IMG/VR virus record: IMGVR_UViG_3300043567_000723
DNA: 64,000 bases
Source: a virus
Taxonomy: Duplodnaviria; Caudoviricetes
Strand: one strand, 5' to 3'
Part shown: positions 32,936 through 55,429 of the stretch, piece by piece
Layout: every line of letters starts with the position of its first letter
Numbering within the stretch: position 1 is the first letter of the stretch
The notes under the pieces: generated by a model
The model's input: the letters and a program-made list of their open reading frames with translations, nothing else
What the model was told of the DNA's origin: nothing
The model's database searches: none
Position numbers and translations under genes: made by a program

Positions 32936-33778
32936 ATGGACGCGCGCGAATTCTTTGCCCTACTTTTCCGCCACGTGATTCTTATTCTAGCCGGCGCTCA
33001 TGTAGCGCTGGCCGGCACGCGGGACCCCAACACGCCAGACGAAAAGTACGTCGAGTTTGGCAAGCAGTTTCCGTCTGTGCTGCGCATCCGGGCAAATATC
33101 ATTGACCCCGAAAGTAAGTACCCCTACCAGTATGGCTCTGCAGTGGCTATTCGGCCGCACTGGATTCTTACGGCAGCGCATGTGTTAGCCGGCGCTGAGA
33201 ACCCCGTGGCGATTAAAGACGGCGACAAGAAGTTCGCGCTTGGCCCTGTGTTCGTCCATAAAGACTTTGAAGAAGAGACTGTAGGCTTTCACGACATCGC
33301 ATTGCTGTACTCGCCCGAAGATTTTGAGCTAAAGTTTTACACGCCGCTGTATACAGACAAAGATGAAGTTGGCAAGGCTGTGACGATTGCCGGCTATGGT
33401 TTCTACGGGACGTTTCATACGGGCGGCAAACAAATAGATAGCAATAAGCGCGCCGGGCATAACAAAATAGACAGCGCTGAACGCGCGGTTCTTTTATGCA
33501 GCCCCAGTGTGACAAACCGCATGCCGCTAGAATTCATGATTGCTTCTGGGGATTCCGGTGGTGGCTTATTTATCGGCAACGAATTAGCCGGGATTAACTC
33601 TTTTCTCATGGCTACTGACAAAAAACCCGACGGAAGTTACGGCGATGACGCGGCTTTTACCCGTGTGAGTTTGTACGCGGATTGGGTAGAATCACAGATC
33701 GCGGCGTATGAATTAAAGATAGCCGGCAAAGGCACGCTCGCGGCAGATCTAGATTTAATCTCCCCACCTGAAGAGTGA
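32936..33778 (+). CDS. Secreted trypsin-like serine protease (S1)
   Basis: Signal peptide; LTAAH, HDIALL and GDSGGGL catalytic triad motifs. Confidence 0.92.
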   Translation: MDAREFFALLFRHVILILAGAHVALAGTRDPNTPDEKYVEFGKQFPSVLRIRANIIDPESKYPYQYGSAVAIRPHWILTAAHVLAGAENPVAIKDGDKKFALGPVFVHKDFEEETVGFHDIALLYSPEDFELKFYTPLYTDKDEVGKAVTIAGYGFYGTFHTGGKQIDSNKRAGHNKIDSAERAVLLCSPSVTNRMPLEFMIASGDSGGGLFIGNELAGINSFLMATDKKPDGSYGDDAAFTRVSLYADWVESQIAAYELKIAGKGTLAADLDLISPPEE

Positions 33779-51091: not shown

Positions 51092-51120
51092 TTGCAGTCT
51101 TTTTTGTTTCGGGGCATAAT
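51092..51120 (+). promoter_or_regulatory. Candidate sigma70-type promoter for the holin/protease block
   Basis: TTGCAG-17 nt-CATAAT, then AAGGAG RBS and ATG 51148. Confidence 0.45.
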
Positions 51121-51147
51121 GTGTGCTCATTACTCAAGGAGTGATTT

Positions 51148-51519
51148 ATGGCTACAAAGAAAAGTGTTGAAACAGTACGTGAAGAACTGCGGGTGTTAAA
51201 CAGCGCTGTTGACGATGTAAACGTTGACAACGGTAACTGGCTAACGCCGGAATTCTGGACAATGGCCTTCGGCGCGATCACGAATCTCGTGGCTGTTGGC
51301 GTCCTCATTGGCTGGATTGACTCGTCGCAGGCTGAGTCGCTGACCAAGGCTATAACGGCGATCGTTGGTGCCACGCAAATTGTCGTGCTGAATAGCGCGT
51401 TGATTTGGAAGTATCTGTCTGGCCGCACTGAGCTGCGTGCCCAGATGGTTGACGCCCGCTATCGGTACATGGAAGCAGTGGCTGTTGAGAAAATGCGTTC
51501 AGACCGCGCGAGCAGCTAA
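51148..51519 (+). CDS. Holin-like protein (2 TM)
   Basis: WLTPEFW..AFGAITNLVAVGVLIG and a second TM helix; charged C-terminus. Confidence 0.6.
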   Translation: MATKKSVETVREELRVLNSAVDDVNVDNGNWLTPEFWTMAFGAITNLVAVGVLIGWIDSSQAESLTKAITAIVGATQIVVLNSALIWKYLSGRTELRAQMVDARYRYMEAVAVEKMRSDRASS

Positions 51520-51522
51520 CAC

Positions 51523-51927
51523 ATGACCACGGCAGAACTGCAAAAACGAATTGATGCATCCGCAGCGTTGTCGGACTTGAAGCGCAAACTCACGGACGAG
51601 ATTGCGCTTCAAGCTGACAATAGCTTTCAGTTTGATCCGTTTCTGGTTGTAATGATTATCTCTGTGCTTGTGCAGGTGATTATTCATTGCCGCGAGCAGA
51701 ATTCAGACGATGCGATTCAACAAAGCATGCGAGAACTGCGTACGCTTCCGCCCCGTAAATTAATGCGACTACGACGCCGCTTAAACAATTTATGGCGCGA
51801 GCACTGCGCTAAGACAGGTACAGAATACACACCCGATAACCCAATCGTTGGGGCTGTGTATCGGTTAAGTGATACAATTGATGACGCTGCCGCAGCCGGC
51901 CTCGTGGAGTTGGCTGCCGCGCGTTAA
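51523..51927 (+). CDS. Hypothetical protein with central TM segment
   Basis: FQFDPFLVVMIISVLVQVIIHCR. Confidence 0.6.
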   Translation: MTTAELQKRIDASAALSDLKRKLTDEIALQADNSFQFDPFLVVMIISVLVQVIIHCREQNSDDAIQQSMRELRTLPPRKLMRLRRRLNNLWREHCAKTGTEYTPDNPIVGAVYRLSDTIDDAAAAGLVELAAAR

Positions 51928-51939
51928 TCTCTTGCAAGG

Positions 51940-52773
51940 ATGCGCATTATGGCAAGGAAGCCAACCGCACAATCAGAAGCTCATGTTATTCCTGTCGGCG
52001 AGATCCTCAAGCGTTTACACGCGCTCGGGTATTTCGGAGACAAGACACTGGCGCAGGTCAAAAAGATCAAAGGCGTCGAGTTACAGAAGGCTGTACGGGC
52101 GTTTCAGGAATTTAACGGCCTGAGCCCTACGGGCACAGTTGGCCCGAAGACCGCGCACCGGATCAACCGGCGTCGCTGCGGCCTACCTGATTTTAATATC
52201 ACGGCACCCGGCGGCGACCCGTGCAAATGGCCAATGCCCGGCGTGACGTACTACCACGATGTGCATCTGCCCGGTTTAACAGACTCGCAGGTAGCCGAAG
52301 CGTACGACATTGCATTCAGCCAGTGGGCCGAAGTGTGCAATCTGAATCCGTCGCGTGTTGATGCCGCGAACAAAGCTAATATTTATGCTCGTTCTGGCGT
52401 CGGTAAGAAGTACGGTTTAGATAACAAAGGCGGCACGTTGGCGTGGAGCGAGTTACCGTGCGGTGTTGCTGAAAACATCCAGCTTGATCAGATGTTTGAC
52501 GAGGCAGAAGACTGGTCTTTTAATATGGCCGTCGCTGTCATCTGCCACGAGCTTGGTCACGCATTGGGCCTGCCGCATTTAAATTCCGGCAATCTTATGG
52601 CGCCGTATTACGACCCAAACGTCACAAAACCGCAAGATGGTGACGTTGTAGAGATAGTGAAGTTATACGGTAAACGAACAGCGGCGTATCCCATTACGCA
52701 AGATGCCGGATTACAAATTAACGGTACGCTTACAATTAATGGTCGTCCGTATGTTCTTGTGCCGCAGACGTGA
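51940..52773 (+). CDS. Peptidoglycan-binding domain + matrixin (M10) metalloprotease
   Basis: AVRAFQEFNGLSPTGTVGPKT (PG-binding 1), RRCGLPD cysteine switch, HELGHALGLPH, LMAP Met-turn. Confidence 0.9.
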   Translation: MRIMARKPTAQSEAHVIPVGEILKRLHALGYFGDKTLAQVKKIKGVELQKAVRAFQEFNGLSPTGTVGPKTAHRINRRRCGLPDFNITAPGGDPCKWPMPGVTYYHDVHLPGLTDSQVAEAYDIAFSQWAEVCNLNPSRVDAANKANIYARSGVGKKYGLDNKGGTLAWSELPCGVAENIQLDQMFDEAEDWSFNMAVAVICHELGHALGLPHLNSGNLMAPYYDPNVTKPQDGDVVEIVKLYGKRTAAYPITQDAGLQINGTLTINGRPYVLVPQT

Positions 52774-52808
52774 TAAAATAACAATAACACACAATCGTTG
52801 GAGAAATT

Positions 52809-53090
52809 ATGACTATGAATACGTTTCAGCTTGTTTTAGCCGGTCTTTTTCTTGTAGCGCTTGTTGCGACCTATCGTGACACGCTGCTTGGTTTTTTAAA
52901 GAAGCGCGGCGTAGCCGCCGTATCGGGCGTGCAGGAATCGATCGCTGTCCCGCTCGTCAACGACATCTTGGCGGTGACCAAGCTGCGTGACAAACTTTCT
53001 GCAGAAGGCTGCACGGCGGGCGTTGATGCCTGCACAGCTTTGCTGCGCGTGATTGTCGAGTATGAACAGCCGTCAAAGGGTGTTGTATGA
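52809..53090 (+). CDS. Small membrane-anchored protein
   Basis: GGAG RBS; N-terminal TM segment. Confidence 0.6.
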   Translation: MTMNTFQLVLAGLFLVALVATYRDTLLGFLKKRGVAAVSGVQESIAVPLVNDILAVTKLRDKLSAEGCTAGVDACTALLRVIVEYEQPSKGVV

Positions 53091-53542
53091 AAAAAGTAGT
53101 TTGGATTCTCGGTTTACTGCTGCTGCTGTCGTTTGTGTTTCCAAACGGCCTACCCGGTTTGCACACACCGACCGACACAGACGTAACGCCCGTTGTGCCC
53201 GCCGGGCCAACTGACGCGAAAATTGTTGAAGTATTAACTGGGTCTGACGCCGCTGATCGCGCGCGCATTGCGGGTGTGTACGCTGGTTTAATCCACGTGC
53301 TAAATCGCGACGGCGGAAAGAAACTGATCACAACGACTGAAAAGTTTGCGATGCTGCAGGCCAATACACTCGGCGTAGCTATTGATACGCCGGGCGAGTA
53401 TCCGGGGCTCGACACCGCAATTGAGAGCGTGTTTTTAACGGCTGTGGGTTCTGATGACGTCGTACCCGTTACGCCGGAACTGGTCACAAAGTTGGTCGAT
53501 GCTTGTGCTGTTATTGTCAATTCGGCTACTACGGCTAAATAA
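53087..53542 (+). CDS. Exported/membrane-anchored helical protein
   Basis: MKKVVWILGLLLLLSF signal; ATGA overlap with the previous gene. Confidence 0.65.
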   Translation: MKKVVWILGLLLLLSFVFPNGLPGLHTPTDTDVTPVVPAGPTDAKIVEVLTGSDAADRARIAGVYAGLIHVLNRDGGKKLITTTEKFAMLQANTLGVAIDTPGEYPGLDTAIESVFLTAVGSDDVVPVTPELVTKLVDACAVIVNSATTAK

Positions 53543-53545
53543 CAA

Positions 53546-54001
53546 ATGCCGCTCACGCTGTCTGTACTGTTATTGTGTTTGATCGTTTGGCTGTTGGCCG
53601 TGATGTACGCCCACCTGAACATGGTGGACTATCCATCGCGGCCGCAGGGATTAGAGTTGGTACAAATTAGGAGTAATATCGCTATGGCTGATGTTTTAAC
53701 GTATCGTGTTTCTGCCGCCGCCCCGGTTGACGCTGACGTGGTCTCGCGCGTTGTTACGCTCAAGATCAACGGCGAAGACAAGGGCGCTCGGACGTTTGAG
53801 GGCGCTGTAACTGATCTCGGCACCGTCGCCGCGCCGCAAGGTGCGGAAGTCGAGCTGTCGCTGGTCGACGTAGATGACGCGGGCAACATTTCGCAGCCTG
53901 CTACATATACGTTCACGGCTGTTGATACCCTGCCGCCGGCCGTTCCCGGCGCGTTCAATGTCACGCTGGTCAGCGAAGCTCCCGAAGAGCCCGCTGTCTG
54001 A
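53546..54001 (+). CDS. Membrane-anchored Ig-like/beta-sandwich protein (alternative start ATG 53684)
   Basis: N-terminal TM; VDVDDAGNISQP...DTLPPAVPG pattern; AGGAG before the internal ATG. Confidence 0.55.
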   Translation: MPLTLSVLLLCLIVWLLAVMYAHLNMVDYPSRPQGLELVQIRSNIAMADVLTYRVSAAAPVDADVVSRVVTLKINGEDKGARTFEGAVTDLGTVAAPQGAEVELSLVDVDDAGNISQPATYTFTAVDTLPPAVPGAFNVTLVSEAPEEPAV

Positions 54002-54022
54002 ATCTAATGTCGGAGTCATTCC

Positions 54023-55048
54023 ATGGCCAATACAGAGAACTTCTTTGAAAACGTTTATGACGTTGTGGCAGCGTACGAAGGCGGCTACGTGGGGGCTTAC
54101 AGCAACCCCGAAGCAGCTGAAGCGCTCCGCGATCAGATTAAAGCCGCCGGTGGTATTCCCGACGGCGCCATGGCATGCTCGACATATAAACTTGAAGAAA
54201 CTGGCAAGGGCAGGTTAAGTTTGCCGTTTCTTGAGATCCTGAAGCTCTACCCGGACGCCCTGCCGGGTGGAGCGCAGGGTCGCGGTGACTGTGTAAGTTG
54301 GTCGACGCGAAACGCCTGTCTCGGCACGATGTGCTGCGAGATTACAAGCGGTGTTCCCGACCCCAACAGCAACCGGCTTGAGGGTGCGCCGGAAGTAAGT
54401 GACACCGCGCGGCTTAACGGCGTGTTAAGCACTGAGGCGTTTTACAATTGGCGCCGACACGGTGGCGACGGCTGGAGCTGCGCTGAAGCCGCGCAAGTAG
54501 CCTTAAACGATTCTGGTCTCTGGCTTCGAAAGAAGTACGACGAGATCGATGTTGACTTTACGCAGTACAGTTCGCGGAACGCCGGTATTTACGGGAGCCG
54601 AACGCCCCCGGAATCATGGCGCGCGATCGGTAAAGATCACCGCGTGCAGACAATCACAGAAGTAGAAGAGTATGAAGCGCTGCGCGATCTTTTAGCCAAC
54701 GGTTACTGTATAAGTAGCTGCGGTAGTGAAGGATTTTCAGATAAACGAGATGAACATGGCGTCAGTCGTCGTCGTGGTAGTTGGGCCCACGCGCTCGCAT
54801 ATCTCGCTGTAGACGACCGGCCTGAAACGATTAAGTTATATGGTGAGCCGCTTGTATTAGTTCAAAACTCGTGGGGCGCGTGGAATGACGGAAGTCGGCG
54901 TATTTTAGGCACTACGATCGATATTCCTGTTGGTGCTTTCTGGGCGCTCTGGTCAGATATTAAAAACCGCTATATGGTAGCTATCTCTGGCGTAAACGGT
55001 TGGCCGCCGAAGAAGCTCAAGAGTTATGGCGCGCTCGGTAACATATAA
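54023..55048 (+). CDS. Papain-like (C1) cysteine protease
   Basis: QGRGDCVSWS (Gln and Cys), SWAHALAYL (His), VQNSWG (Asn). Confidence 0.88.
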   Translation: MANTENFFENVYDVVAAYEGGYVGAYSNPEAAEALRDQIKAAGGIPDGAMACSTYKLEETGKGRLSLPFLEILKLYPDALPGGAQGRGDCVSWSTRNACLGTMCCEITSGVPDPNSNRLEGAPEVSDTARLNGVLSTEAFYNWRRHGGDGWSCAEAAQVALNDSGLWLRKKYDEIDVDFTQYSSRNAGIYGSRTPPESWRAIGKDHRVQTITEVEEYEALRDLLANGYCISSCGSEGFSDKRDEHGVSRRRGSWAHALAYLAVDDRPETIKLYGEPLVLVQNSWGAWNDGSRRILGTTIDIPVGAFWALWSDIKNRYMVAISGVNGWPPKKLKSYGALGNI

Positions 55049-55084
55049 GCGCAACGTGTTGCAATAATCGAAAAAGGACGACAT

Positions 55085-55429
55085 ATGTTTGAATGGCTTG
55101 TTCTCGCAGTTCCGGTGACATATGCCGAACCACCCAAGAAAGACTATATCGGGGTGGTCGCTGCAGAGGCTGCTTATGCTTCTTTGCTTCCTGACGCGGC
55201 GCCTGTAAAGCCACTCGTAGACACAAAAGACTGCAAGCGCTGCAACGGCACAGGTCGGATCCGCACGGGCGACGACATTAACTGGACGGACTGCCCGGAC
55301 TGTGAACCGAAAGACGGCTCTATCAAAGAATCGGGCCCGCTGCCGTCCATGCGTTTACAGGTTAAGCCCCTGCCGCCGGTTAAAACGAGTGATTGCGAAA
55401 CCGGTCGTTGTCCAGCTCCTCGCACGTAA
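55085..55429 (+). CDS. Exported protein with DnaJ-like CxxCxGxG zinc motif
   Basis: CKRCNGTG...CPDC; C-terminal CETGRC. Confidence 0.6.
   Translation: MFEWLVLAVPVTYAEPPKKDYIGVVAAEAAYASLLPDAAPVKPLVDTKDCKRCNGTGRIRTGDDINWTDCPDCEPKDGSIKESGPLPSMRLQVKPLPPVKTSDCETGRCPAPRT

Follow-up and report, generated by a model that had tools for sequence, protein, structure and literature searches.

Introduction

To our knowledge, every holin-using tailed phage studied so far lyses its host by means of a peptidoglycan (PG) hydrolase. In the lambdoid arrangement S, R, Rz/Rz1, the gene for a small protein with two transmembrane (TM) helices comes first, followed by the gene for a soluble enzyme that has no signal peptide, and then by genes for small anchored or exported proteins. 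Here we describe a block of genes with the same succession, at 51148-55429 on the + strand of a 64,000-nucleotide stretch of viral DNA (the window), which is bases 46697-110696 of a single 157.5-kb contig, IMG/VR record IMGVR_UViG_3300043567_000723, from a large uncultured lake phage. The block departs from the lambdoid plan in that its enzymes are an M10 zymogen and a papain-type peptidase, in that no lipobox o-spanin is found in the window, and in that no holin homology rises above threshold. On the sequence evidence we lean toward reading the block as a lysis cassette in which peptidases serve as lysins in place of a muramidase or amidase, and the phage probably uses this operon of peptidases and membrane proteins to burst its host.

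Both enzymes have well-described relatives. The M10 protein shares with the matrix metalloprotease (MMP) zymogens, such as pro-MMP-1 (1su3), and with bacterial karilysin a prodomain of the PG_binding_1 fold, an RCGxPD cysteine switch, the HExxHxxGxxH zinc motif and the Met-turn. It differs from the pro-MMPs in that the His residues of the structural zinc site are replaced (as judged by eye), four extra Cys residues are present, there is no signal peptide, the short C-terminal tail is not a hemopexin domain, and its neighbor is a holin-like gene. The second enzyme resembles the papain C1A group (xylellain, 3ois, and the cathepsins) in fold, in the order of its motifs, and in an N-terminal extension where C1A enzymes have their propeptide; it differs in having neither a PF00112 match nor a PDB sequence match, in its mostly viral look-alikes, and in its frequent inteins. 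Papain-fold enzymes of the CHAP and NlpC/P60 families cut PG peptides; phages use this Cys-His papain-like core on the cell wall, and the fold can serve as a lysin. Unlike these enzymes, the phage protein has C1A proteases as its top structural matches and carries the C1-type NSWG, and any activity of it on PG is putative.

The pairing of a papain-family protease and a matrixin in one virus is known from the baculoviruses, in which the papain-type V-CATH and a viral MMP are latent and are used late against host barriers for virus release. Those are insect viruses, however, acting on tissue and basement membrane without a cassette of membrane proteins. In Listeria, a metzincin of phage origin, Mtz, is accompanied by an exported partner, the TIMP-like lipoprotein Tim; together the two alter the wall and raise phage-mediated lysis (PMC8235301). 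Mtz differs from the enzymes described here in that it is secreted, is encoded by what remains of a phage in the chromosome and does not serve as the lysin, and no TIMP-like fold was found in the phage block.

Results

The search for a peptidoglycan hydrolase

The record is 77% complete by CheckV, and complete relatives, of 198-205 kb and with terminal repeats in three of five, were therefore examined as well. Nearly every gene of the record lies on one strand. Besides tRNAs and a tmRNA, the genome encodes a multisubunit RNA polymerase of its own. Neither the block nor its M10 and papain-like genes have a DNA or protein match among the INPHARED phages; the RNA polymerase alone finds distant relatives there, namely Salmonella phage Arash and Vibrio phages D69, D148 and D181, at ~31% identity.

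Is a canonical lysin encoded elsewhere? The initial annotation had recognized no lysozyme, amidase or M15/M23 motif in the block, and a canonical cassette at another place was set beforehand as the refuting test. None was found in the genome, in the part missing from the record, or, for the families named below, in five complete relatives. All 174 open reading frames (ORFs) of the record lack a Pfam match to lysozyme, transglycosylase, amidase, M15, M23, CHAP or NlpC/P60 at E<=1e-3, a threshold at which divergent lysins can be missed, and six-frame searches of the record for PF00959, PF01464 and PF01510 were empty. To cover the missing part, the record was mapped onto a complete 203-kb relative, G002; the 40 kb absent from the record hold 61 ORFs there, and none of them matched a PG hydrolase in Pfam. 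The five complete relatives gave no match to PF00959, PF01464, PF01510 or PF13539. PF00182 gave none in them either, but neither did its control, and that result carries no weight.

A complete 62-kb genome of 89 ORFs, G313, was likewise without a PG hydrolase. This podovirus-like phage, with terminal repeats and a P22-type portal, is unrelated to the present one and carries the papain module. It also encodes a Peptidase_S8 subtilase (313 aa, E 7e-55, no signal peptide), whose gene in the segment G313:C1:41228-44359 (- strand; L121, L092) lies directly beside the papain gene, a homologue of the gene at 53087, and a gene for a 217-aa protein with 21 Cys, and holds the place that the M10 gene has here. 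With G313 and the present lineage, the papain module joined by a second, different protease, without a PG hydrolase, is seen twice, independently.

The M10 metalloprotease

The PG-binding domain and the matrixin with a cysteine switch, both noted in the initial annotation, match Pfam above cut-off: PG_binding_1 at E 1.6e-10 and Peptidase_M10 (PF00413) at E 1.6e-18, the latter with 67.5 bits against a cut-off of 24 over residues 97-244. The protein aligns with pro-MMP-1 (E 8.8e-17) through prodomain, switch and catalytic domain, its RRCGLPD facing QPRCGVPD. In 18 phage homologues of 59-90% identity, R79-C80-G81-L82-P83-D84-F85 is invariant, as are the His, Glu, Gly and Met positions of the zinc motif HELGHALGLPH (HExGHxLGLxH) and the Met-turn LMAPYY, and four further Cys residues at 95, 133, 174 and 202. 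MMPs also have a structural zinc site in the S-loop, made up of three His and one Asp, which the phage protein lacks as judged by eye from one pairwise alignment, where the His positions of MMP-1 face Val, Trp and Met; this site is not needed for membership in the Pfam matrixins. The protein has no signal peptide.

Its N-terminal domain is similar, too, to the modules with which phage endolysins bind PG (phrog_1493, E 8.8e-6). Each of the five complete relatives has its best PG_binding_1 match in the M10 gene; in three of them this match, and no other, passes the family cut-off, and in the remaining two it stays below (E ~6e-5). Elsewhere in these genomes there are only two additional matches, both weak (E 0.016 and 0.067). 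A PG-binding domain followed by a catalytic domain is the domain order of the endolysins of large Gram-negative phages, and the layout of the M10 protein fits either an MMP zymogen or this binding-plus-catalytic design. The invariant extra Cys residues, together with a membrane-anchored variant of the papain enzyme described below, suggest that these proteins act outside the cytoplasm.

The window encodes a third protease, a trypsin-like serine enzyme of 280 aa at 32936-33778 (+), with a Trypsin match at E 2.9e-15, a GDSGG motif and a hydrophobic N-terminus resembling a signal peptide. One possible role of this enzyme is in the activation of the M10 zymogen.

The papain-type peptidase family

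The papain-like gene is the most conserved of the block, with 66-89% identity across the family. Its product has no match in Pfam (PF00112 none at E<=0.1), in PHROG or in INPHARED, and no PDB sequence match at E<=10. The assignment as a papain-like protease nonetheless holds, by motifs and by fold. In 21 homologues, ranging down to 30% identity, Q85, G88-D89-C90, H256, D264, Q281 and S283-W284-G285 are invariant and N282 is kept in at least 90%; the catalytic Gln, Cys, His and Asn stand in the order of the C1 family. The AlphaFold2 (AF2) model (pLDDT 82.9, pTM 0.85) finds xylellain in Foldseek at E 6e-9, and cathepsins B, K, L and S in a range extending to E 1e-5. At E<=0.001 the PDB yielded 213 matches, of which the listed ones are C1 enzymes; template-modeling scores over the query are only 0.35-0.45.

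A full HMMER search places the enzyme in a family of 1739 clusters at 50% identity. Look-alike clusters in the ESM Atlas are 88-100% viral by recorded taxa, one of them having PF00112 on 12% of its members. Among the 150 best cluster representatives, 62 are at least 430 aa long. The idea that these long members are fusions to wall-binding domains was rejected: each of the ten that were scanned carries Hint and LAGLIDADG intein domains and no extra functional domain. Most of the 62 are interrupted at the catalytic Cys or His or close to the NSW, and in some there are two inteins. Inteins typically settle in the conserved active sites of genes that a phage cannot lose, and their location at the Cys, His and NSW motifs suggests that this active site is conserved and under selection. 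A few family members have N-terminal extensions of 235-310 aa that are without explanation; P0256 has no Pfam match.

How far does the block extend beyond this phage? Its conservation in related phages, named in the initial annotation as a check, is evident in the close family, where all nine genes are syntenic in ~46 related IMG/VR loci. Distant phages retain only the papain gene and its partners. In the high-GC locus L083 a TM protein and then a 53087-like protein precede the peptidase, and an exported CxxCxGxG protein follows it; in the low-GC locus L088 the peptidase comes first, and after it an anchored CxC-GxG protein, a TM protein and a 53087-like protein. Among the neighbors of the L088 papain gene, PHROGs recognized a glycosyltransferase and a ribonucleotide reductase only. 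The block consists of two sub-modules, an old and widespread one made up of the papain gene with its membrane partners, and a variable second protease, which is M10 here and the S8 subtilase in the 62-kb G313.

Prophage contexts and the probable host

GTDB genomes were scanned with M10 and papain profiles. The M10 profile found a copy of 50% identity in a metagenome-assembled genome (MAG) titled Planctomycetaceae bacterium, on a 20-kb contig of 67% GC (L112), where it comes after two small genes and ~3.8 kb upstream of an HK97-type TerL (6z6d, E 1e-17). No other close M10 copy was found in 301 genomes of the phylum of this MAG. The two genes upstream of M10 (L112:4328-4968, +) encode a 101-aa protein with a TM helix and coiled coil and a 112-aa Cys-rich protein with the motif YHDWSY, which by eye recalls phospholipase A2 active sites. 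A terminase small subunit in L112 and a DUF1559-like protein in L129 are also by-eye readings only.

Of 401 genomes of the same phylum, 6 have the papain gene. Among the contigs that carry it are two of 1.8 and 6.1 Mb, and on contigs of such length the copies are integrated rather than errors of binning. In the prophage L132, genes for a two-TM protein, a lipoprotein with the lipobox LAGC (and a sub-threshold PKD match), the papain enzyme, an exported protein and a TM protein are followed, after ~0.9 kb without annotation, by a TerL of the gpA type (E 3e-42), a lambda-type portal (E 3e-59) and an S49-capsid fusion. L129 has a TM protein, a papain enzyme with its own N-terminal TM helix and two anchored proteins, and then TerL and portal. 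In both, the papain module lies directly upstream of terminase and portal, which is the position of S-R-Rz/Rz1 in phage lambda. L131 has a two-TM protein, an exported protein, the papain gene, an exported protein and a TM protein. In L130 (G276:C1:873-876 kb), two TM proteins, a lipobox protein and the papain gene stand by themselves in a 6.1-Mb chromosome among neighbors that look cellular; L130 may be what is left of a prophage, or else a module that has been domesticated. A role of the papain enzyme as a prohead protease was considered and rejected: the gene is always accompanied by membrane proteins, and in L132 the S49-capsid fusion supplies the head protease, so that the papain enzyme is not the maturation protease there.

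Three of the host genomes (G371, G196 and G397; 6-7 Mb) have no match to PF00959 or to SLT PF01464 at E<=1e-3. Each has a single Amidase_2, on a contig other than that of the cassette, which is a low number for such large genomes. From these contexts, the host of the present phage is probably a member of the Planctomycetota.

The remaining proteins of the block and its promoter

The block is tightly packed over 51092-55429, with gaps between genes of -4 to 36 nt. Nine + strand genes were counted in 51148-55429, each an open reading frame lying where the initial annotation had it; the eight itemized with coordinates are given in Table 1 and are named here by their first base. That annotation had spoken of three membrane or exported proteins beside the holin-like one. 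Such proteins are indeed present, though the count was too low, as there are five or six, among them 51523, 52809, 53087, 53546 and 55085.

Table 1. Coordinates and predicted features of the block
Position	Strand	Feature	Remarks
51092..51121	+	Promoter-like site TTGCAG-N18-CATAAT	Read from the sequence
51148..51519	+	Holin-like protein, 123 aa	N-terminal part of ~35 aa, TM helices 39-57 and 68-86, charged C-terminal tail
51523..51927	+	134-aa protein with one hydrophobic helix (37-55)	In all close relatives; no Pfam or PHROG family match
51940..52773	+	Pro-MMP-like zinc endopeptidase	PG_binding_1-type prodomain, cysteine switch RRCGLPD (Cys80), M10 catalytic domain, conserved 30-aa C-terminal tail
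52809..53090	+	93-aa protein with N-terminal TM anchor	TM prediction
53087..53542	+	151-aa protein with N-terminal TM helix, Pro-rich linker and compact helical bundle	Start overlaps the stop of the 52809 gene (ATGA)
53546..54001	+	151-aa acidic protein with N-terminal TM anchor	In most close relatives
54023..55048	+	Papain-family (C1-like) cysteine peptidase, 341 aa	N-terminal extension of ~65-80 aa ahead of catalytic Cys90; no signal peptide
55085..55429	+	114-aa exported or anchored Cys-rich protein	Short hydrophobic N-terminus; CxxCxGxG...CxxC (DnaJ-type zinc-finger-like); C-terminal CxxGRC

For the holin-like protein, the two-TM topology and charged tail stand, while every family match is sub-threshold: PF23987 at E 6.5e-4 (20.1 bits, cut-off 27), PHROG holins at E 0.02-0.07, and Atlas scores below 0.9. 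The protein is kept in 22 relatives at 40-86% identity. The 51523 protein could, at a guess, be a second holin or an antiholin-like partner.

Small N-terminally anchored proteins analogous to that of 52809 adjoin the papain gene in L083 and L088. Homologues of the 53087 protein lie beside the peptidase in distant phages, at 42% identity in L083 and 33% in L092-L094/G313, and the 53087 protein is a conserved partner of the papain-type peptidase. Its AF2 model (pLDDT 88.7) is a TM helix with a helical bundle and has no fold match in the PDB (best E 1.2); a role as inhibitor or spanin would be a guess. In the 53546 protein an Ig-like, beta-rich domain is an impression by eye only. The prophage cassettes have an exported protein at a comparable place, in one case with a sub-threshold PKD match (PF18911, E 2.4e-4, 21.5 bits, cut-off 27). 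The 55085 protein has weak DnaJ_CXXCXGXG and Anti-TRAP matches, and its analogues, with a hydrophobic N-terminus and CxxC/CxC-GxG motifs, follow the peptidase in L083 and L088; in G313 the 21-Cys protein precedes it. A lipobox protein is present in the prophage cassettes L130 and L132. Several of the anchored partners show no similarity to known lysis proteins in Pfam, PHROG or fold searches.

The promoter candidate of the initial annotation has fared well. The site lies within the 63-nt spacer upstream of the holin-like gene, which also holds an AAGGAG ribosome-binding site 7 nt ahead of the ATG. A generic sigma-70 scan made no call at 51092..51121, but TTGC-N18-20-AYAAT occurs at the orthologous position in most relatives, in spacers that have otherwise diverged; a few relatives are without any spacer before the holin-like gene. 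Because the motif recurs at the same place in diverged spacers, we take the site to be a real, though not universal, promoter. That it might be a motif recurring through the window was rejected, as the window has one copy only. The segment 51125-51147, with the ribosome-binding site of the holin-like gene (ACTCAAGGAGT), could pair as a short ACTC/GAGT hairpin with part of the GGA in its loop.

Discussion

How would such a cassette burst a cell? We propose that both enzymes accumulate in the cytoplasm late in infection in inactive form, the M10 enzyme because the thiolate of Cys80 would block the catalytic zinc, and the papain enzyme because its N-terminal extension may act as a pro-region; this latency would protect the cytoplasm until release. 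As neither enzyme has an export signal, a membrane lesion would be needed for their exit, and the holin-like protein, perhaps with the one-TM protein of 51523, would open the inner membrane. Once at the wall, the M10 enzyme may be docked on the sacculus by its PG_binding_1-type domain. Activation might follow from oxidation, from displacement of the switch, or from cleavage of one protease by the other. The enzymes would then cut peptide bonds that hold the envelope together, whether those of PG stem peptides and cross-links, those of wall proteins, or both. The small anchored proteins may position or regulate the papain enzyme, or may deal with the outer layers as spanins do.

What would the peptidases cut? 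Planctomycetes do possess PG (PMC4432640), and their walls are described as protein-dominated in addition to containing PG (PMC4432640; PMC12673574). With both present, either polymer could be the target. The initial annotation had proposed a non-canonical lysis cassette aimed at a proteinaceous envelope. Its first half is supported by the lack of a PG hydrolase and by the terminase-adjacent prophage modules; its second half is not, as planctomycetes have PG and papain-fold enzymes can cut it.

Several points weigh against a lysis cassette of peptidases, or against the host to which we assign it. In this phage the block does not adjoin the terminase; it is flanked by a putative virion-cargo gene on one side and by the RNA polymerase genes on the other. 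We know of no M10 or C1 peptidase that is a PG hydrolase, and a very divergent hydrolase could have escaped Pfam. The holin call is made from topology and sub-threshold matches only, and the holin-like two-TM proteins of the different cassettes, in this phage and in the prophages, have no detectable homology to one another. No lipobox o-spanin is encoded in the window, the three N-terminally anchored proteins of the block being without a lipobox cysteine. The link to the host is indirect, by way of the M10 contig and the papain prophages. Contigs of this phage family also occur in MAGs labeled Betaproteobacteria and Sphingorhabdus, and in G415 (MAG 'bacterium isolate WB9_2_064', 5.3 Mb), which is of another phylum, the short family contigs C669, C116 and L111 include an M10 gene of 86% identity and two papain-type genes. 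The papain gene was absent from 120 further genomes of the G415 phylum, and the family contigs in G415 are probably a binning artefact, which is a warning against host calls based on MAGs. The comparison of 6 in 401 genomes with 0 in 120 is, for its part, not significant evidence of phylum specificity.

One alternative keeps the block within lysis and places the cutting of PG elsewhere. A divergent but true PG hydrolase would be encoded at another locus, and the two proteases would strip a layer other than PG, such as a protein wall, an S-layer or outer-membrane anchors, in the way that mycobacteriophage LysB and the spanins follow up the work of the endolysin. A step of this kind would be required in hosts with protein-rich walls, and these phages have three different proteases to offer (M10, C1-like and the exported trypsin-like enzyme), with S8 in G313. 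Divergent lysins can indeed escape detection at the threshold used. Yet no PG hydrolase family appeared in ~200 kb of the lineage or in the complete G313, and in the prophages the papain gene itself occupies the endolysin position between membrane proteins, so that we consider an accessory role unlikely. The lack of another lysin, and the location beside terminase in two prophages, which is typical for lysis genes, speak equally against the proposal that the block remodels the envelope and does not lyse the cell. In that case the enzymes would modify host surface proteins, destroying receptors against superinfection or against loss of progeny on debris, or would process phage membrane proteins. 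Several anchored partners are in fact unlike known lysis proteins, the stand-alone cassette L130, with no obvious phage genes near it, could be a domesticated envelope function, and the phage-derived Mtz of Listeria alters the wall without being the lysin (PMC8235301). Here, however, both enzymes are without signal peptides and would depend on permeabilization of the membrane, and remodeling strikes us as quite unlikely.

Might the proteases instead be packaged in the virion and ejected to breach the envelope at entry? Missing signal peptides would be expected of such enzymes, and zymogen latency would suit storage in a virion too. Neither enzyme, however, is fused to or adjoins a tail or baseplate gene; their neighbors are holin-like and anchored membrane proteins and not virion parts; one prophage version of the papain enzyme, in L129, is membrane-anchored; and L132 has a head protease of its own. 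Because the enzymes are unfused to virion proteins and are placed with holin-like and membrane proteins, delivery for entry seems very improbable.

If the block is a lysis cassette, papain-type and matrixin-type proteases in the place of the lysin would be a new lysin class. The M10 gene would provide an example of cysteine-switch latency in a bacterial virus, and the papain family is a large, intein-rich phage family that current annotation leaves as 'hypothetical'. A broader proposal, which we put forward tentatively and which may well prove wrong, is that phages of Planctomycetota, and perhaps of other hosts with protein-rich walls, generally lyse without a glycan-cutting or amidase endolysin, by a dedicated, ancient papain 'proteolysin' cassette that includes membrane-anchored partners and is joined by an interchangeable latent protease (matrixin or subtilase). 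Should that be true, there would be a third kind of phage lysin beside the PG hydrolases and the single-gene inhibitors of wall synthesis, and the cysteine switch of the MMPs would act as a compartment-sensing safety catch. A recent review of the Planctomycetota mentions phages once, in passing (PMC12673574). A lysis cassette of peptidases in the present phage would offer an initial clue to the way in which phages leave these bacteria, and would bear on the long debate over the extent to which planctomycete walls rely on protein rather than on PG (PMC4432640).

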